A stretch of 64,000 nucleotides of DNA from Verrucomicrobiia bacterium (lineage in GTDB: Bacteria > Verrucomicrobiota > Verrucomicrobiia > Limisphaerales > UBA8199). How positions within the stretch are numbered: the first letter of the stretch is position 1; each line of letters begins with the position of its first letter. The DNA lies in NCBI GenBank assembly GCA_036524155.1, contig DATDCV010000045.1, positions 260 to 64,259 of the forward strand. Reading direction: 5' to 3'. This document shows positions 15,618 to 45,044 of this stretch, in pieces. The translations under genes and the position numbers were made by a program. The notes beneath the pieces are model-generated. The model ran no database searches and was not told the origin of the DNA. It saw only the letters and a program-made list of their open reading frames with translations.

Positions 15618-15728
15618 TACCCCCTCGGTCTTGAGTCGGAGCGCCGAGTTGCACTCGGCTTACCCTCGGCCGTCGGCTCGCTTAAGCCGATTAGAAATCG
15701 GCGCTCCGACCCAAGACTGAGGCGATAC
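15618..15728. mobile_element. MITE copy 2
   Basis: Same 111-bp element, flanked by a perfect direct repeat cagaagacg (15609-15617 and 15729-15737). Confidence 0.9.
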
Positions 15729-21769: not shown

Positions 21770-21880
21770 TATCGCCTCAGTCTTGGGTCGGAGCGCCGAT
21801 TTTCAATCGGCTTGAGCGAACCGACGGCCTCCTGTAAGCCGAGTAAAACTCGGCGCTCCGACCCAAGACTGAGGGAGTAC
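21770..21880. mobile_element. MITE copy 3
   Basis: 111-bp element flanked by a perfect direct repeat cccgtgagg (21761-21769 and 21881-21889). The left repeat contains the TGA stop of the upstream gene. Confidence 0.9.
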
Positions 21881-22060: not shown

Positions 22061-22888
22061 ATGTCGAGATTCACCGCCAAATTGCCGATCGGCCTCGTTG
22101 CCCTCATCGTGTGTTCAGCGCCTTATTGCTGCCGGGCGAACGAACGGAATTTCACCTATACGTACGAGCCCGAGACTCTGCCGAAGGGCGGCTTGGAATA
22201 TGAGCAGTGGGTCACACTGCGTGCCGGACGCAATGCGGCCGTGGGCCAGGACGACTTTAACCTCTGGGAGTTCCGCCACGAGTTCGAATACGGACTGGCC
22301 GACAATTACACCGTCTCGCTTTACGTGAACCATAGCCTCGAGAATTTCAACGAACCGGGCGGCGGCGGCCACCACTCGCACTATGCGTTCGATGGCGTGT
22401 CGCTTGAGAACCGCTACCTGGCGATGAACCCGGTCGACCATGCGGTCGGGCTGGCGCTGTATCTCGAACCACGGTACTCCGGGGACGAAGCCGAACTGGA
22501 GCAGAAAATCATTTTGGGCCAGCGCTACGGGGATTGGAAGTGGGCCCTCAACCTGACTCACGCTACCGAATGGGAAGACGACTTCCGCAGCACCGAAGGC
22601 GAAGTGGAGTTGAGTCTCGGGGTCATCCGCCGCCTGGGCAAACACTGGAGCCTGGGCGTGGAGGCCCGCGACCACAACGAGTTGCCCGAGTACAGCGTTT
22701 GGGAAAACACCGCGTTTTATCTCGGGCCGGTGGTGTCGTACCAGCGGGAGAAATGGTGGGCCACGCTTACCGTGATGCCCCAGGTTTTCGGGGCCAATTT
22801 CCAGGACAATCCCAGCCGCAGCGACCACCTCGAACTCGAAGGGCATGAGCGCTGGAATGTCCGCCTGATCTTCGGATTTGGATTCTGA
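22061..22888 (+). CDS. Putative outer-membrane beta-barrel protein
   Basis: Signal-like start MSRFTAKLPIGLVALIV, alternating-pattern strands, C-terminal ...RLIFGFGF ending in an aromatic residue. ORF 22019..22888. Confidence 0.45.
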   Translation: MSRFTAKLPIGLVALIVCSAPYCCRANERNFTYTYEPETLPKGGLEYEQWVTLRAGRNAAVGQDDFNLWEFRHEFEYGLADNYTVSLYVNHSLENFNEPGGGGHHSHYAFDGVSLENRYLAMNPVDHAVGLALYLEPRYSGDEAELEQKIILGQRYGDWKWALNLTHATEWEDDFRSTEGEVELSLGVIRRLGKHWSLGVEARDHNELPEYSVWENTAFYLGPVVSYQREKWWATLTVMPQVFGANFQDNPSRSDHLELEGHERWNVRLIFGFGF

Positions 22889-23402
22889 GCGTATGAGGCT
22901 GACCGCGACACCAGCCTTCGGGCCGAGGCCCGGGGGGAAAGCCGGAAAAGAAACGCGAACCCGCGGGAGGCTCGCCAAGCGATCTTCATTCCATTTGCTC
23001 GGCCTGCTACTCGTCGCGCTGAGCCTGCCGGCCCCCGCAGGCCGGAGCGCGGAGATTGCTCCCGACCCGACCGAGGTGGGGCGGAAACTATACCAGAATC
23101 GCTGCGCGAAGTGCCACCAGATGTACGATCCCGCGAAATATACTGACACCCAGTGGCAGACGTGGATGACGAAGATGGGCAAAAAGGCGAAGCTTCGTCC
23201 CGCCGAAAAGCAAATGGTCTTGCAGTATGTCGAACAAAGCCTGAGGGCATCTGTGAAGACAAGCGCGCGGGTGACCAAGGCCCGGTCGCCCGGCGGTGCC
23301 GAGGCGGCAGGGAGCCGCATCGCGATAGAGGAAGGCCAGCCCTCGCCGCCAGACTGGTCCGGTCACAGTCCTGGGGGCGCCTCGCTCACGGCTCCGCGGT
23401 AA
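22878..23402 (+). CDS. Small exported c-type-cytochrome-like protein
   Basis: Single CAKCH (CxxCH) haem motif after a hydrophobic segment [15 protein letters not shown]. Overlaps the previous gene by 11 nt. Confidence 0.5.
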
Positions 23403-26151
23403 TCGCCAGCAGGAAGGGCGCCGCGTCAGACATCGCCGAGACATAATCCAGCGAAACAATCTCAGTTCCCGGCAACGGATTGACCCAGGTGCTCTTGAAC
23501 AGGCGCACTGAGTAACGGGCATCGTTTAACCCCCGCCAAACGATTTTGGCCCGTGGCGACGTGCTTGAGCCGTCACCGCCCTCGTACCAATCCCGCAGGT
23601 CTTCCCCATAGATGAGGGGAATGGCCTCCTCGTGCCCGTTGGCGTAGTGAAGGATGTAGGCCCCCGCTTGAGCCCCGTCACGCGCGCGATACCCGGTGCC
23701 GTGCAGAAAATGGAGCTGCCGGCAGGCTTGCCCGATCTTCATCCCGCTGATCTGCTGCGGATATCGCCCGCCGGCATCGCGGAGTTTCTTCCCCGAAAGC
23801 TGCACAATTCCCCGCACGTCGAACGCCGTGTCGCCCATCTGCAACACGCCGGTCGGCAACGTTGCCAGGTTGTTGTTCTCAACCCCCGGGTGCCAGGTTT
23901 GCCCGAAAGCGGCATTGTAGTACTCCGATAAATCAATCAGGTTGGCGGGCGTAAATGGAAGGCGGCCGGGAATGAGCCGGGCGAATTCGCGCTGAGGCGA
24001 AAGCAACTTCGCCAGGTCCGCCGGCGGCAAAGGCAATTGTTCCACCCTCTGGGCGTCCCGCGGCGCGGCGAAACCCGAATGCCCCGCGTGCGGCGCCGAA
24101 TTCCCGGCCCGCGGAACGCGAAAGGGCTCGACACCAGGCGGGGGTGGGAGGAATGAGGGACCGCCACGCGGGCCTGAAGTCTGAATCGAACGGTGGATTT
24201 CGGTGATCACCAGGCTCGTGATCGGCCATTCCGGCGGAGCGCCTGCCAGTTCCTGCGCCCAATTCGAGAGATCGATTCGCATCTGCAGCACCAGGTTGTT
24301 GGAACTGTTGACCCAGGCCGTTACCGGGATACGCGCCTGGTCGGCAACCCCTTCCCGGACGCCGAGCCGCGCCAGAAACGGCTTGGCCTCATGCTCCCAT
24401 TGGAGGATGCGCACGCGCTGGCCTTCAATCTCGTCGTAGCCCCTGGGCTGGATGTTGCCCGCCTCATCCAAAAACCGCTCGGCCGCCTTTCGATCCAAAA
24501 ACAGGCGATACACGGGCAGGATCGCGAATGGCTCGATGGGGGGTGGCAGTTGTTCGAGATGTCCGAACAGGTTTCGCTCCAGGTCGGGAGGGAGCGCCTG
24601 GAACTGGCCGAGGGCCGGGGCATACAAAACCATTCGGGGACCATCCCGCAGAAACTGGACCTGGGTCTCGGGTGTGGTGAGGCTGCTTCGTAGCGCGAAA
24701 TTCACCCGGTCGGGCGCCTCAAAAATCATCGACCCCGAGCTGGTCATCGGCGCGGTGTTGCCGCCGAGCCCGAGCTCGACTTTGGTCTCCAGGGCGTCGC
24801 GATATGCGCCCAGGCGACCATAAACCTCCTCCAATCGCCGGGCGGTCGTCACGGCCAGGTTGGCCTCGTGGTATCGCGACCACACCGGACCCAGCAGCAG
24901 GTAGCTGAACAGCAGCACCGCCGCCGCTCCGAACCCCAGCACCATCCCTCGTCGCCCAGCCTTCTTTTGCCGGCGCACTTCCGCTTCGGGCATGTTGGTC
25001 TGGATCCAGGCCAGGTCGAAAACATGCCGATATATTCGGTTCCGGACCTGGAGGAATCCGTTCACTCCCCTGGCGATGCCCGACAGGTGCAATATGCTCA
25101 CCAGGGGGTTCGTTTCATCGTCAGGGACCAACTCGCCGAGGTGGATCCTCCGGTAGAGCAACAACAGCCCGGTCACGTCCACCTCGCTGCGCAAAACCCG
25201 CTCCCGGACAAAGATCAGGTTGTCGTCCCGGTCGCGCGCCTGCCGTGAAAGGAACAGCTTCTCCGCCGCGCGATCCACCTCCCTGATGGTCGGGAGCACT
25301 GGCGGGACCTGGCGCGCCGGAGCGGCCTCCAGGGCTTGCGTCGCCAGGATGCTTTCCGCCAGTTCGCGGCATAGCCGCTGCGTTAGATACGGGTGGCCGC
25401 CGGTCCAGTAAAGCACCCGCGCCAGCAATTCACGGGCGGTTTGTTCATCCGCACCCAGGCCCGCCGCCAGCGGCGAGCCCTCCGCCGCGGTGAAATCATT
25501 TAGCTCGATCCGCCGGCCGATGTTGAACGGCGTCATCCGGGTGTCGCGAATCAAGTCCGTCGGTGTCGCTACACCCAGCAACCCGAAAGCCAGACGGTTG
25601 AACGCCGGCTCGTGCGCCCGGCGATTGTAGCACTCGCGGATCGCGGCGAAAAACTCATCGGTTGAAAAGGGCAGGCTGCGGACAATGTCGATCTCGTCCA
25701 CGAAAATGACCACCTCGCTGGCCAACTCCTTCAGGACGACATTTTCCAGCGCGCCGGTCCAACGCTGCAAAGGCCCAAGCTCCGGGTGCGATCCCCAGAA
25801 CTCCACCAATTCGTCCTCGAGTTTTAGCTGCTGGCCCAGGCGCGAGATCAGCCCGTCGTACCACTGCTCGATCGTCAGATTCTGGCCTATCGCTGTGAGA
25901 TCCAGGACCGCGACCGACACCCCTTCCTGGCGCAGGCGTTGCACGGTGCGGATCATCAGCGAGGATTTCCCCATCTGCCGGGAAGTCAGCACATAGCAAA
26001 ACTCGCCGTTCAGCAGGCATTGACTTAGTTCCTTGTCGGCCTGACGCTCGATGTACGAAGGCGCATCCGGGCGCAGTGTGCCGCCCGTGACATAAAAATC
26101 GCCGCCCGTCCGGACTTCCGTGCGAGGTGGTTGGATTGGCGGTTGGGACAT
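23386..26151 (-). CDS. P-loop NTPase (AAA_35-like) - single TM helix - ~500-aa extracytoplasmic region
   Basis: Walker A SRQMGKSS, Walker [16 protein letters not shown] and GGHPYL motifs. TM helix [23 protein letters not shown] at aa ~403-424. Beta-rich C-terminal module (IDLSEYYNA...LHFLHGTGY...AITAEP). Confidence 0.85.
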
Positions 26152-26206
26152 AAATGCCGGCAGGCTACGCCGGGCTTGGCGCCGCGCGGCGCCGGTAACG
26201 TTCCCC

Positions 26207-27757
26207 TTAATGCAGGTGTCGCCGCAGGTATATTGCGTACAGCCGGCACCGCGAACGTGCCTCCTCCGGCGTATGCCCGATGAGCAGTCCGGCGCTCCGG
26301 AGCCGGTCGAAGCTCTCAGCGCTTGGGCAGGGCTCCGAGTTCAACACGTGGCGCATCGCCCGCGTCAGCGCCTCGTCCCGAACCAGGATGACCAGGATTC
26401 GCCGCAAATGGTCCCCGTAGAACGACTCGTCGCGCGCGGCGTGCTCTTCAAAGTTGTCAAACGACAGCCGGCGCGTCGCCAGTTCGTGCAGGCCGCGGCG
26501 CACCAGGTATGGCTGGCCGCCCACCAGCCGGTAAAACCGGTTCAGTTCTTCCTGGGTCTTGATCGCGTTGCTATATCGGCGATTCAGCTCCGCCACCTGC
26601 GTCGGCGAGAAATCCTCCAACCCCAGCCGCGTGCCCACGTTAAATGGCGATTGGTTCAAGTCGGTGATAAACAGGTGCGCCTCGGTCGCATACGCGATCG
26701 CTATCGTGAGGGCCGACCATGGGCCCGCCGGGTCGAGCGCCCGTTCGTTATGCCATGACCGAAGCAGCCCGAAGACTTCGTTGCCGAAAGGCGTCCCGAA
26801 CAACCGGTCCACCTCGTCCAGCGCCCACACCAGCGGCGCGTCGAATCGGGCCAGCACTTCCCGCCGCATGAAACGTTCGAAATTGGCATTCGGACCACGA
26901 CGCTCATCCCACGTGTCGGCCGGAAACACTTCCAGGTCCAACTGGTTAACAATCGACTCCGCCAGTCCTTTGTACAGGTGGTTGAGCGTCCGGAAACTGT
27001 CGGCGTTGAATTTCTGCAAGTCTGTTGACACCGCCTTGCTTCCTGCCTCGCGCGCATACTGGAGTCCCCGGGCCAGCAACGACGTCTTGCCCATCTGCCG
27101 CGCTCCTTTGATGAGAATGATGCTGTCGCGTTTCGCGATCGCCGTTTGCAGGTCTCCATCCGCCTGCCGGGCGATGTAGAATTCCGAGTCCAGCGGCACC
27201 GCGCCCCCGATTGCTTCCAGCGCCATCGGCCGCGATCGGCCGGGCGCCGCCACCGGCCGCGCCGGCTCGGTCACCGGCAGGGATATCGGCTCCTCAGCCG
27301 CACGCATGGCGCCCTCCCGGGGCAGGTGTTTGAGCGCCTCTGCGAGTTCCGTCACCAGGCCAAGGTTGTCCTCTTCGCCTTCCCACAAATAATACTGTAC
27401 CGGGTCGAGGATGCTTGCCAGCGGCTCCGGCAACGGCCCCGTGTACTTGACCCGCACCGGGAACAACCGCGGCCGGCCCTGCTGCAACTGCGCCGCCTCG
27501 TGTGCCGTCTCGATCTCAAACCCGAGCATCTCGCTGTAAATCGCATCCGCCGAAAGCAACGGAATCACCGCGTCCGCCGACCGGATCCGGGCTTCGAGCT
27601 CGCGGGCCCAATCCACTCCCATCGTAAGATGCCGGTCCAGGAAGATGCTGCAGCCGCTGCTGCCAAGCTGGCTTTCCAGGGACTTGACCAGCTCCTGGTC
27701 CGGATGACCGTCCCGCTTATACAGTAACACCACCTCAACCTTCTTCGTCGCTGTCAT
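26207..27757 (-). CDS. TIR-domain protein fused to P-loop NTPase (AAA_35-like)
   Basis: N-terminal TIR-like segments [11 protein letters not shown] / [15 protein letters not shown] / [23 protein letters not shown]. Walker [10 protein letters not shown], Walker [25 protein letters not shown] 27757 preceded by ggag (ORF track starts at GTG 27772). Confidence 0.85.
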
Positions 27758-27990
27758 AGGACTCCGCCGCACACGTTAGCCTTTATCGCGCCTGTGGGGG
27801 CACTTCAATCGGGTTTCTTCGCTCCCGTTCAAATACAGCACTGAACCCACTGCTGCAAACCATTTAAATAAGGAAGGGGGCCTCCAGGCCCCCTTTCAGG
27901 CCTCGCGGGATAACTCCGGCCGAAGCCGGAGCGGAAGCCATGGGCCTCATCATACCGCTCGGCTCGTCGCCGTCAATCCCAGCCGCGGGG

Positions 27991-28100
27991 TACCCCTCAG
28001 TGTTGGGTCGGAGTGCCGATTTCTAATCGGCTTAAGCGCGCCGACGGCCGCGTGTAAGCCGAGTGCAACTCGGCGCTCCGACCCAAGACTGAGGCGATGC
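27991..28100. mobile_element. MITE copy 4
   Basis: 110-bp element. Flanks gccgcggg / gccgcgga match 7/8. Confidence 0.85.
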
Positions 28101-28169
28101 GCCGCGGATTTCCACTCGACCGCGAAGCGCCCGGACGTTATTGTCGCCGGGCTTCACCCGAAGCGAATT

Positions 28170-42408: not shown

Positions 42409-42514
42409 TATCGCCTCAGTCTTGGGTCGGAGCGCCGATTTTTAATCGGCTTAAGCGCGCCGACGGCCGCGTGTAAGCCGAGTGCAACTCGGCGCTCCGA
42501 CCCAGAGAGGATCC
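42409..42514. mobile_element. MITE copy 5
   Basis: 106-bp element with a slightly eroded right end. Flanks atcgcgaag / atcgcgagg match 8/9. Confidence 0.85.
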
Positions 42515-44930: not shown

Positions 44931-45044
44931 TACCCCCCCATCAGTCTTGGGTCGGAGCGCCGAGTTGTACTCGGCTTAAGCGAGCCGATGGCCTCCTGTA
45001 AGCCGATTAGAAATCGGCGCTCCGACCCAAGGCTGAAGCGATAC
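44931..45044. mobile_element. MITE copy 6 (central segment inverted relative to the other copies)
   Basis: 114-bp element flanked by a perfect direct repeat gtaacgagg (44922-44930 and 45045-45053). Confidence 0.9.

Follow-up and report, generated by a model that had tools for sequence, protein, structure and literature searches.

STAND NTPases, which include the bacterial TIR-NLR, Avs and bNACHT proteins, AfsR/SARP, MalT, PknK-type kinases and STAND cyclases as well as eukaryotic Apaf-1 and NLR proteins, carry N-terminal effectors and C-terminal repeat sensors. The DNA analysed here, a 64,000-nucleotide stretch from a Verrucomicrobiia bacterium (the window), contains two adjacent genes, A and B, whose products resemble this class in that a P-loop switch related to ORC/Cdc6 leads into helical and winged-helix segments, Walker B contains Asp-Glu, and GG(Q/H)PYL forms a GxP-like motif. 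Their family also has comparable outputs (TIR, kinase, wHTH with BTAD, cyclase and CHAT/caspase) and sensor repeats (WD40 and TPR). Unlike STAND NTPases, the effector and sensor of A and B are carried by two paralogous NTPase proteins rather than one polypeptide, the sensor subunit (B) is membrane-anchored, and the NTPases belong to the Pfam family AAA_35, not to NACHT, NB-ARC or AAA_16; neither protein matches the PADLOC Avs, TIR-NLR or bNACHT models. On balance, A and B probably constitute a self-contained two-gene module, akin to a split STAND protein, in which B is the receptor, A is the effector, and an envelope cue activates a TIR NADase.

Other described systems are also close to the pair. 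As in Thoeris (ThsB/ThsA), TIR-SAVED CBASS, SPARTA and Cat1, A has a TIR_2-type domain with a conserved catalytic-type Glu, and its TIR shows weak profile similarity to AbTir/Cat1-type NADases. The locus differs from these systems in having no ThsA-like SIR2/SLOG, SAVED, Argonaute or CARF partner, the TIR being fused instead to an NTPase with a membrane paralogue as partner. Archaeal ORC1/ORC2 and eukaryotic Orc/Cdc6 are the closest solved structures to the ATPase and winged helix of B, but the A/B locus shows no DNA-replication context, and the pair differs further in the membrane anchor of B and in its added TIR and sensor domains. The features of gene A are as follows, with motifs placed by position.

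26207..27757, minus strand: gene A, a 516-aa cytoplasmic TIR-AAA_35 protein, proposed effector/transducer subunit (ORF, Pfam TIR_2 and AAA_35, orthologues)
27392..27706, minus strand: TIR_2 domain, aa 18-122 (Pfam E 2e-16, 61 bits, cut-off 28)
27515..27517, minus strand: codon of Glu81, candidate catalytic Glu of the TIR (conservation and alignment)
26222..27205, minus strand: AAA_35 NTPase module, aa 185-512 (Pfam E 3e-79, full-length profile)
27080-27106, minus strand: Walker A, GARQMGKTS, aa 218-226
26807-26833, minus strand: Walker B, LVWALDEVD, aa 309-317
26504-26521, minus strand: GxP-like GGQPYL, aa 413-418

The ATG at 27757 agrees with the N-termini of orthologues (more than 100 clusters, 62-87% identity), with a GTG at 27772 as the alternative start. 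Both reading frames, and every motif quoted in the preliminary description, are present at the positions given there, and the AAA_35 family (PF14516) that it suggested for the two NTPases is confirmed by Pfam, as is the TIR domain. It had also pointed to a candidate catalytic Glu in the motif FEIE (aa 80-83); the first of these glutamates, Glu81, shows no variation in 48 orthologues and is constant among 23 TIR-bearing A-types from several phyla, in which E83 is variable. A profile built from these 23 TIRs matches the AbTir, Cat1, TcpB and SARM1 structures, and in the alignment Glu81 occupies the place of the YE/DE Glu in AbTir-type and Cat1 TIRs. In the NTPase, K224, D314, E315, G414 and P416 are invariant in the orthologue alignment. 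An effector role for A, as previously proposed, fits both the invariant catalytic-type Glu and the fact that other lineages have kinase, CHAT, wHTH or cyclase outputs where A has its TIR.

Gene B encodes a longer protein in which the NTPase is followed by a membrane helix and a large C-terminal region.

23386..26151, minus strand: gene B, a 921-aa membrane-anchored AAA_35 protein, proposed receptor subunit (ORF, Pfam, AF2 model pLDDT 83.9)
25330..26082, minus strand: AAA_35 NTPase core, aa 24-274 (Pfam E 2.5e-32)
25960-25983, minus strand: Walker A, SRQMGKSS, aa 57-64 (motif position)
25687-25713, minus strand: Walker B, VVIFVDEID, aa 147-155 (motif position)
25384-25401, minus strand: GGHPYL, aa 251-256 (motif position)
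24988..25329, minus strand: helical and winged-helix-like extension of the NTPase, aa 275-388 (AF2 secondary structure)
24946-24996, minus strand: juxtamembrane motif, aa 386-402 (conserved in B-types)
24880..24945, minus strand: single transmembrane helix, aa 403-424 (hydrophobic segment)
24172..24807, minus strand: LolA/LprG-like half β-barrel, aa ~449-660, proposed lipid/lipoprotein-binding sensor (Foldseek against the PDB)
24052..24171, minus strand: Pro/Gly-rich disordered linker, aa 661-700 (pLDDT <50 at aa 663-691; sequence)
23389..23979, minus strand: C-terminal jelly-roll β-sandwich, aa ~725-921 (AF2 pLDDT 91)

Orthologues of B form more than 100 full-length clusters (47-73% identity), with K62, D152, E153, G252, H253 and P254 invariant, and the first 400 residues retain 55-64% identity across phyla. 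Foldseek matched the ATPase to archaeal ORC1/ORC2/Cdc6 and SSO1545, and more weakly to Avs4 and NOD2; the ATPase modules of the pair look like the ORC/Cdc6-STAND type. The single membrane helix noted earlier at aa ~403-424 is confirmed within a long predicted helix (aa 389-445, AF2), and an equivalent segment (KD >1.6) is present in 61 of 67 B-types. A signal peptide is absent from B, whose 400-aa ATPase precedes its sole membrane segment; with five to six Lys/Arg before this segment and two to five after it in B-types, the positive-inside rule is only weakly decisive. The sensor lies beyond the membrane helix and so, by topology, the ectodomain of ~500 aa is probably outside the cytoplasm.

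Against the PDB, the ectodomain matched LprG, LolA, LppX, LprF and DUF1329 (E 1e-8 to 1e-5, TM(target) 0.55-0.66), and its range was taken from the β-rich stretch of the model because Foldseek reports no query coordinates. As in the LolA/LolB/LprG/LppX carriers and RseB, the model is of an unclosed β-barrel with a helical plug, but the putative barrel is tethered to a membrane helix and a cytoplasmic ATPase, and the match is one of predicted structure, at a sequence identity of only ~10-13%. Among the orthologues, some have a PF09865 match or are named ‘outer membrane lipoprotein-sorting protein’ by JGI. The C-terminal β-sandwich gave no match in Pfam and no confident structural match, the only similarities being weak ones to CBM/lectin-like and phage tail-fibre-like folds. 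It is nevertheless a mobile and widespread domain (3,745 cluster representatives), fused elsewhere to WD40, TPR or kinase plus WD40 and found also in secreted proteins with an N-terminal signal-peptide-like hydrophobic segment. Other B-types have PEGA/CarboxypepD_reg, domains that are typically extracytoplasmic, at the position equivalent to the ectodomain. The earlier proposal that B is an envelope-facing sensor thus gains support from the LolA/LprG-like fold, the secreted homologues of its C-terminal domain and the exchange for WD40, TPR or PEGA. B also resembles receptor-type Ser/Thr kinases with extracytoplasmic WD40, PEGA or TPR regions, in that it has one membrane pass, a catalytic module on the cytoplasmic side and comparable binding domains at the C-terminus, and Pkinase-WD40 proteins carry the same β-sandwich; unlike in these receptors, transduction in the A/B pair would run through paired NTPase switches and not a kinase on the same chain.

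The paralogy proposed earlier for A and B was borne out by BLASTP (30% identity over 263 aa, E 1e-25), and both ATPases keep the Walker A Lys, Walker B Asp-Glu and GxP-like motif invariant. The two genes are probably co-transcribed, and the non-coding features around them are as follows.

26152..26206, minus strand: A-B spacer of 55 nt, containing the 16-nt palindrome GGCGCCGCGCGGCGCC at 26178-26193 (sequence)
27758..28169, no strand assigned: divergent intergenic region upstream of A (scans)
27976-27949, minus strand: promoter-like site upstream of A (scan)
27895-27874, minus strand: GC-rich stem-loop upstream of A (scan)
27995-28094, no strand assigned: REP/MITE-like inverted repeat with 46-nt arms, 83% complementary

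The perfect palindrome emphasised in the preliminary description is real but carries no weight, as it is not conserved in orthologous loci, where the gap is 3 nt (L084), ~20 nt (L001) or 58 nt without a palindrome (L086). No T-run directly follows it, and a scan of the spacer, in which no promoter-like site appeared, flagged only a weaker stem-loop next to it (26173-26157). The region upstream of A contains no Rfam family. Its inverted repeat, taken earlier for a MITE boundary of the pair, does exist, but the element is dispersed over at least six intergenic sites of the window and so marks no specific boundary. On the other side, a convergent dihaem cytochrome c-like gene (22878-23402) shares 17 nt with the 3′ end of B, and the surroundings are housekeeping genes (HypC/HypD, an AsnC regulator, an aminotransferase and an ABC-2 permease), both as previously described.

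Homologues of A and B are widely found together, with the gene order kept and almost no gap between them. The A→B pair recurs in Verrucomicrobiota, Acidobacteriota, Armatimonadota, Planctomycetota, Chloroflexota, Actinomycetota and Cyanobacteria, including cultured Nostoc sp. HK-01 and Ca. Chlorohelix, with an A-type gene directly upstream of 60 of 79 B-type genes and a spacing mostly of -33 to 170 nt across at least seven phyla. In every verrucomicrobial context the order and near-abutting arrangement are kept while the flanks are unrelated, and even the closest relatives (A 86%, B 73% identical) differ in their flanks; the pair is therefore not part of an invariant core synteny, although mobile-element or defence-island context is absent from the Verrucomicrobiota and Acidobacteriota loci. 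Distance matrices of the A and B ATPases are correlated (Mantel r 0.72, a value reached by 0 of 999 permutations). Identity is ~30% between A-types and B-types as against 50-64% within each type across phyla, from which the split appears ancient. We found no description of this gene-pair family in the literature.

Across the family, variation is confined to the ends of both proteins, which are exchanged, as is typical of NTP-switch receptors. A-type N-termini carry TIR, Pkinase, Pkinase-TIR, TIR-TIR, Trans_reg_C (OmpR-type wHTH), BTAD, Guanylate_cyc (class III cyclase) or CHAT, output domains that are all activated by dimerisation or induced proximity. The regions after the membrane helix of B-types are WD40 (49 of 69), TPR, PEGA or LolA-like, and the two ends co-segregate: TIR-bearing A-types accompany non-WD40 B-types, and wHTH or kinase-only A-types accompany WD40 B-types. 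As a rule A-types have no sensor domain and B-types no output domain, so each is incomplete alone.

Several other explanations bear on these observations. The pair may instead serve physiological envelope or environment signalling, a possible if tentative reading in which B would report mislocalised lipoproteins, lipids or surface glycans and the TIR of A would make a nucleotide messenger or act as a scaffold. Such a system would adjust physiology without killing and would be analogous to one-step transmembrane signalling. RseB is a LolA-like envelope-stress sensor that the fold of B recalls, and OmpR-type wHTH, BTAD, Ser/Thr kinase and class III cyclase domains replace the TIR in homologous pairs. 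Within Verrucomicrobiota the pair shows broad, vertical conservation beside housekeeping genes, some flanks include ECF sigma factor genes, FHA domains on some B-type variants provide a link to Ser/Thr phospho-signalling, and AAA_35 is fused to sigma factors in cyanobacteria (PMC11119718). However, no gene for a receptor of a TIR-made signal adjoins the pair in this window or in the orthologous loci inspected, and the CHAT and caspase outputs of cyanobacterial relatives are death-type effectors. To our knowledge, bacterial TIRs with a catalytic Glu are so far mostly tied to immunity or toxicity. Anti-phage abortive infection, with B sensing phage adsorption, injection or envelope damage and the TIR depleting NAD+ to kill or arrest the cell, seems rather unlikely, although immune proteins repeatedly join a TIR to a STAND-like NTPase and Glu81 is conserved. 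The highly variable ends, several paralogous copies per genome, ~60% identity across phyla (which suggests horizontal spread) and differing flanks of close relatives would suit it, as would the presence on one A-type of TCAD9, whose name derives from ternary conflict systems, and the Nostoc sp. HK-01 pair, which lies on a plasmid beside genes for a restriction enzyme, a caspase-FGE-sulfatase and a CHAT-TIR-AAA_35 protein. Yet verrucomicrobial contexts are housekeeping, A is strongly conserved over many orthologue clusters (70-87% identity), which is unusual for fast-evolving defence genes, and the outputs of sister systems are transcription factors, kinases or cyclases. PADLOC gave no significant match to A or B (its TIR models reached only E ~0.007-0.013 with A), in line with the earlier statement that no named defence system is known with this architecture. 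At 31 loci, the 113 flanking ORFs matched nothing beyond generic kinase or helicase models (two ORFs each), the commonest neighbours being outer-membrane barrels, TPR proteins, ECF sigma factors and oxidoreductases, and 50,697 phage records contained no homologue of either gene. Established STAND-type phage sensors, as far as we know, detect cytoplasmic and not extracytoplasmic proteins.

It is improbable that A and B are independent tandem paralogues whose adjacency reflects duplication history with no functional complex. Solo B-types (19 of 79, including the orthologue P0120), which may stand alone or rely on an A located elsewhere in the genome, and B-B and A-A tandems (L008, L040, L066, L077 and L063) are in keeping with it, but the conserved order and tight spacing despite the ancient split, the co-varying distances and the complementary lack of sensor and output argue otherwise. 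Least probable is an envelope-biogenesis machine, with B as an ATP-driven lipoprotein or lipid handling factor and A as an accessory regulator: the LolA/LprG-like fold and the JGI name would agree, whereas no part of B is less conserved than the LolA-like region, which is replaced by WD40, TPR or PEGA at orthologous positions, the ORC/Cdc6-STAND-like ATPase is a switch and not a transporter, there is a single membrane helix and no permease, and the partner carries a TIR.

In the favoured receptor-effector module, B would be an inner-membrane protein whose ATPase and winged helix lie in the cytoplasm and whose barrel and β-sandwich face the periplasm or cell surface. On the envelope side B would bind a ligand, most likely lipidic or lipoglycan, and the long membrane helix would relay the signal to the nucleotide switch of B, driving nucleotide-dependent co-oligomerisation with the soluble paralogue A. 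We infer this co-assembly because ORC builds hetero-oligomers from paralogous AAA+ subunits. As A clusters, its N-terminal TIRs would meet and, presumably activated by proximity, begin to cleave NAD+, with NAD+ depletion or an ADP-ribose-derived signal as the outcome. Since the TIR follows a kinase or CHAT domain in fusions from other lineages, it could also serve as an oligomerisation adaptor. Of the ‘immunity/signalling pair’ first proposed, the architecture stands; as to its role, with no defence islands, PADLOC system or phage-record matches, the pair may act either in conflict, as the immunity half supposed, or in physiological reporting of envelope state. In either role, the family looks like a new bacterial route for outside-to-inside signals.

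The A/B pair spans 23386-27757 of the window, which comes from the MAG contig of a Verrucomicrobiae bacterium; ORF calling gives two genes there.

26207-27757, minus strand: gene A, 516 aa, the proposed effector
23386-26151, minus strand: gene B, 921 aa, the proposed receptor

In Pfam, gene A matched TIR_2 (PF13676) at aa 18-122 with 61 bits (cut-off 28; E = 2e-16) and AAA_35 (PF14516), over the whole length of the profile, at aa 185-512 (266.8 bits, E = 3e-79), so that both domains named for A in the preliminary description are significant by HMM. Searches of PDB sequences with A, B, orthologue profiles and a single TIR sequence gave nothing significant, and bacterial TIR structures were reached only with a multi-phylum TIR profile. 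This profile of 23 TIRs matched the structures of 7uxr, AbTir (7uwg/8g83), Cat1, TcpB and SARM1 (E = 4e-4 to 0.04), and the alignments to 7uxr, 7uwg (AbTir) and Cat1 (E = 4e-4 to 4e-3) place E81 of A on their YE/DE glutamate, which we take to be the catalytic residue of TIR NADases. E81 is invariant in 48 A orthologues and in 23 relatives that carry a TIR and belong to several phyla; E83 is variable across the same 23 relatives. The earlier suggestion of a candidate catalytic Glu is supported, and because E81 is invariant and aligned with the conserved Glu of TIR NADase structures, the TIR domain of A bears the hallmark of enzymatic competence.

Gene B matched AAA_35 at aa 24-274 (112.5 bits over profile positions 4-254, E = 2.5e-32), with no other Pfam match in the protein. 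A and B are paralogous, as had been proposed (30% identity over 263 aa, E = 1e-25), and all of the motifs first quoted for the two proteins were found in place. The ATPase of A has an invariant Walker A K224, Walker B D314-E315 and GxP-like G414/P416 in 48 orthologues, and that of B an invariant K62, D152-E153 and G252-H253-P254 among its own. Because the Walker A, Walker B and GxP-like residues are invariant in each, both ATPases look active. An AlphaFold2 model of B, computed from 56 orthologues (mean pLDDT 83.9), comprises the following parts.

B aa ~30-388: Rossmann-type ATPase with helical and winged-helix-like parts
B aa 389-445: single very long helix, with the hydrophobic segment 403-424 inside it
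B aa ~449-660: β-rich half-barrel (pLDDT ~85-95)
B aa 661-700: disordered Pro/Gly-rich linker
B aa ~725-921 (window 23389-23979, minus strand): β-sandwich

Foldseek matches were allotted to these regions by the secondary structure of the model. Against the PDB, the cytoplasmic module found archaeal ORC1/ORC2/Cdc6 and SSO1545 first, with Avs4 and NOD2 lower (E ~1e-4), while the half-barrel found LprG, LolA, LppX, LprF and DUF1329 (E = 1.4e-8 to 1e-5, probability 1.0), with a TM(target) of 0.55-0.66 to LolA/LprG-type structures. The half-barrel is predicted to be an unclosed antiparallel β-barrel superimposable on LolA/LprG, and this agrees with the precomputed PF09865 on three B orthologues and the name 'lipoprotein-sorting protein' carried by some. 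We infer that the C-terminal half of B lies outside the cytoplasm, because one transmembrane (TM) helix follows a 400-aa ATPase that has no signal peptide; the ectodomains attached to B, which are of typically secreted kinds, support this placement. That the hydrophobic helix does not span the membrane is less likely, given these ectodomains and the conservation of the helix.

The C-terminal β-sandwich, when modelled separately, reached a pLDDT of 91. Its structural matches were weak (jelly-roll, CBM/lectin-like and phage tail-fibre-like; best E = 2e-3, TM ~0.3) and none was confident among PDB or viral structures, so it can be described only as jelly-roll/CBM-like. An exhaustive HMMER search showed it to be a very common mobile domain, mostly C-terminal, with 3,745 cluster representatives at 50% identity, found fused to WD40, TPR and kinase+WD40 proteins as well as in ~420-aa proteins with signal-peptide-like N-termini. 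At three loci of relatives, a B-type gene (the equivalent of B) that itself lacks the β-sandwich is followed within a few kb by a gene for a separate secreted β-sandwich protein of ~420 aa (L034:5921-7213, L044:9840-11132 and L062:6363-7625), which hints at a functional link.

The pairing of A and B is conserved. In Verrucomicrobiota metagenomes, orthologue clusters number more than 100 for each gene, 62-87% identical to A and 47-73% to B. Of seven Verrucomicrobial contexts inspected, six have A immediately ahead of B, and the seventh is a solo B (47% identical). The flanking genes differ in every case, closest relatives included. When one genome of each GTDB species was scanned, at least 556 relatives were found; full-length matches to B came only from MAGs labelled Verrucomicrobiota or unclassified. 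The cytoplasmic 400 aa of B reach further, at 55-64% identity in Acidobacteriota, Armatimonadota, Planctomycetota, Chloroflexota and Actinomycetota, where the B-type gene is usually preceded by an A-type AAA_35 gene 50-64% identical to the ATPase of A. The supposition that homologues of A and B occur together elsewhere thus holds across several phyla: an A-type gene is directly upstream in 60 of the 79 B-types with enough upstream sequence, mostly at gaps of -33 to 170 nt. The distance matrices of the two ATPases co-vary (Mantel r = 0.72, 0 of 999 permutations as high), a correlation to which shared species phylogeny contributes. The pair is also found on large plasmids of cultured bacteria: in Nostoc sp. 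HK-01 (locus L088, plasmid1 AP018319, 167009-177639) CHAT-AAA_35 precedes AAA_35-...-GUN4, and in Ca. Chlorohelix allophototropha AAA_35 precedes AAA_35-WD40. A Planctomycetota MAG carries a tandem array (L063:4954-16108) of a TIR-TIR-AAA_35 gene, a second A-type and three B-types, two of which look frameshifted or fragmented; this suggests that the family has expanded and decayed locally.

Around this common core, only the ends of the pair vary. The N-termini of A-types comprise TIR, TIR-TIR, Pkinase, Pkinase-TIR, Trans_reg_C, BTAD, Guanylate_cyc, TCAD9 and CHAT. B-types share a conserved juxtamembrane motif followed by a TM helix (present in 61 of 67), beyond which 49 of 69 have double WD40 propellers and others TPR, PEGA+CarboxypepD_reg or a weak caspase-like match; the LolA-like barrel with the β-sandwich is the Verrucomicrobiota version of this region. 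TIR-bearing A-types go with non-WD40 B-types, and wHTH or kinase-only A-types with WD40 B-types. The weak caspase match (Peptidase_C14, E = 3e-5) lies past the TM helix of a B-type from a Chthonomonadales MAG (L010:6003-9389), whose TIR-bearing A-type is ~1.5 kb downstream rather than upstream. In B-types from MAGs labelled Akkermansia and Pedosphaera (L053:1813-3249 and L081:3267-4826), a segment spotted by eye as FHA-like takes the place of the TM helix, right after the juxtamembrane motif, and would tie the family to Ser/Thr phospho-signalling. In one contig, the B orthologue is followed after 5 nt by a SIR2-family gene, and in three a class-A β-lactamase-like gene adjoins or lies near the pair, both possibly by coincidence; these sites are on the contigs of the orthologues P0064 and P0068 and at L084:4622-5479 and L085:3930-4790.

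In the window, the pair sits among housekeeping genes, as first described, its neighbours all being ordinary genes: a 2-hydroxyacid dehydrogenase, HypD/HypC, a secreted Big_5 protein, a DUF6662 protein, a dihaem cytochrome c-like gene, an AsnC regulator, an aminotransferase and an ABC-2 permease. G+C content is level throughout the region. The cytochrome c-like gene (22878-23402, plus strand) converges on B (23386-26151, minus strand) with a 17-nt overlap of the 3' ends. The leader of A has a sigma-70-like promoter match (27976-27949, minus strand) and, ~120 nt ahead of the ATG, a strong GC stem-loop of 9 bp (27895-27874, minus strand) that ends in a T-rich tail and may act as an attenuator or terminate transcription in both directions; Rfam has no family in the window and none matching this stem-loop. 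The 16-nt palindrome reported in the A-B spacer is real and not conserved, since orthologue spacers are 3-58 nt long and the one spacer read, that of L086, is without it, which rules it out as a conserved regulatory element. No T-run directly follows the palindrome, and a scan flagged a weaker adjoining stem-loop (26173-26157).

The 'MITE' placed on one side of the pair is indeed a dispersed inverted-repeat element, a REP/MITE-like palindrome of ~100 nt with 46-nt arms (27995-28094). Six intergenic sites in the 64 kb of the window hold nine arm matches between them, against 0.01 expected.

1166-1185: REP/MITE-like element
15696-15715: REP/MITE-like element
21782-21867: REP/MITE-like element
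27995-28094: REP/MITE-like element near A
42421-42440: REP/MITE-like element
44946-45031: REP/MITE-like element

Because it is dispersed over unrelated intergenic sites of the window, the repeat does not bound an A-B module, and the idea that it borders a mobile unit is rejected, the flanks of related contexts also all being different. The copies at 21782-21867 and 28002-28087 happen to flank a 6.3-kb block of the DUF6662 gene, the cytochrome c-like gene, B and A. No transposase or integrase lies beside the pair in the gene tables of related contexts.

A constant core with swappable ends is the signature of STAND/NLR-type switches, and the A/B family resembles them in its constant NTPase core, swappable N-terminal outputs and C-terminal ligand-binding repeats. 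In STAND proteins, as Leipe et al. reportedly set out in 2004, a helical domain bearing a GxP motif and then a winged helix come after the P-loop NTPase; GG(Q/H)PYL is invariant in both A and B, and helical and winged-helix-like parts are present in the model of B. To our knowledge, STAND/NLR-type switches are cytoplasmic single-chain sensors, whereas here the effector and an NTPase are on A, and an NTPase, TM helix and sensor on B. The parts are all of known kinds (TIR, STAND-like switch and WD40/TPR/LolA-like sensors), and it is the split, paired, membrane-spanning arrangement with an extracytoplasmic sensor that appears undescribed. The view that no named defence system has this architecture stood up in PADLOC-DB v2, in which neither protein significantly matches a system component model (best match of A, PDC-S01, E = 2e-4 over ~65 residues around the P-loop; TIR models, E = 0.007-0.013; none for B). 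NCBIfam gave no model above cut-off and no equivalog for either, and term searches of two surveys of conflict systems from the Aravind lab and of a STAND survey from 2026 did not find the architecture. PF14516 was absent from the searched literature and no functional literature was found on AAA_35, a large Pfam family, its sole mention there being as an accessory domain fused to cyanobacterial sigma factors (PMC11119718).

We propose that B is a receptor whose ectodomain would bind a ligand, perhaps lipidic or glycan. The signal would run along the TM helix into the nucleotide switch of B, which may then co-oligomerise with A through the paralogous AAA+ modules, as in the ORC principle, and the resulting clustering would turn on the TIR of A for NAD+ cleavage or signal production. 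Kinases, class III cyclases, OmpR-type wHTH and CHAT/caspase domains are all activated by proximity or dimerisation, and these alternative outputs fit the clustering model. We consider this receptor-effector model probable overall; within it, A-B binding, the ligand class and the TIR activity are what we infer.

What the model would serve can be read in two narrower ways, each sharing in the probability given to the whole. Classical anti-phage abortive infection is suggested by the TIR, CHAT and caspase-type outputs, the variable ends, the several copies per genome, the likely horizontal spread and the Nostoc plasmid, where the pair is followed by a type II restriction enzyme homologue, a caspase-FGE-sulfatase gene and a CHAT-TIR-AAA_35 gene (L088). 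This neighbourhood is conflict-system-like, unlike the Verrucomicrobial ones, and is a partial exception to the result for defence context. The defence-island or mobile setting considered at the outset is otherwise not supported by the flanks: those in Verrucomicrobiota are housekeeping, and PADLOC on 113 flanking ORFs from 31 loci showed no defence enrichment, only generic kinase or helicase matches (2 ORFs each). Against immunity there also stand the lack of a system match in PADLOC or NCBIfam, the strong conservation of A, and the regulatory outputs of sister systems together with the sigma-factor fusions of AAA_35 (PMC11119718). A further point against it is that phage records hold no A or B homologue, and no carriage by phages was found. 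We think abortive infection unlikely. Physiological envelope signalling, the other reading, we hold to be doubtful as a specific assignment.

More broadly, and tentatively, the receptor-effector pair may stand for a class of bacterial 'outside-in' receptors that has gone undescribed and is spread broadly over the phyla, in effect a split transmembrane NLR. In such a class, an ORC/Cdc6-STAND-like ATPase anchored in the membrane, with its ligand-binding domain outside the cytoplasm, would recruit a cytoplasmic paralogue. The N-terminal domain of that paralogue, which can be exchanged (TIR, Ser/Thr kinase, CHAT protease, OmpR-type DNA-binding or nucleotide cyclase), would be switched on by nucleotide-dependent hetero-oligomerisation. 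If this is true, the pair would parallel Toll-like receptors in logic, not in ancestry, would signal on a different principle from that of histidine kinases, receptor kinases, anti-sigma factors and chemoreceptors, and would be the first case of a bacterial TIR effector under the control of an extracellular cue.

The A/B family divides sensor and effector over two paralogous ATPases and sets the sensor across the membrane, and the analysis also defines a very abundant β-sandwich ectodomain that has no Pfam match in B. The hypothesis can be tested in the cultured carriers, Nostoc sp. HK-01 and Ca. Chlorohelix allophototropha. Should the mechanism prove right, it would couple a bacterial TIR enzyme to extracellular sensing, assign a role to AAA_35, and give transmembrane signalling a new architecture, one that is common among phyla of soil and fresh water (Verrucomicrobiota, Acidobacteriota, Armatimonadota, Planctomycetota, Chloroflexota and Cyanobacteria).
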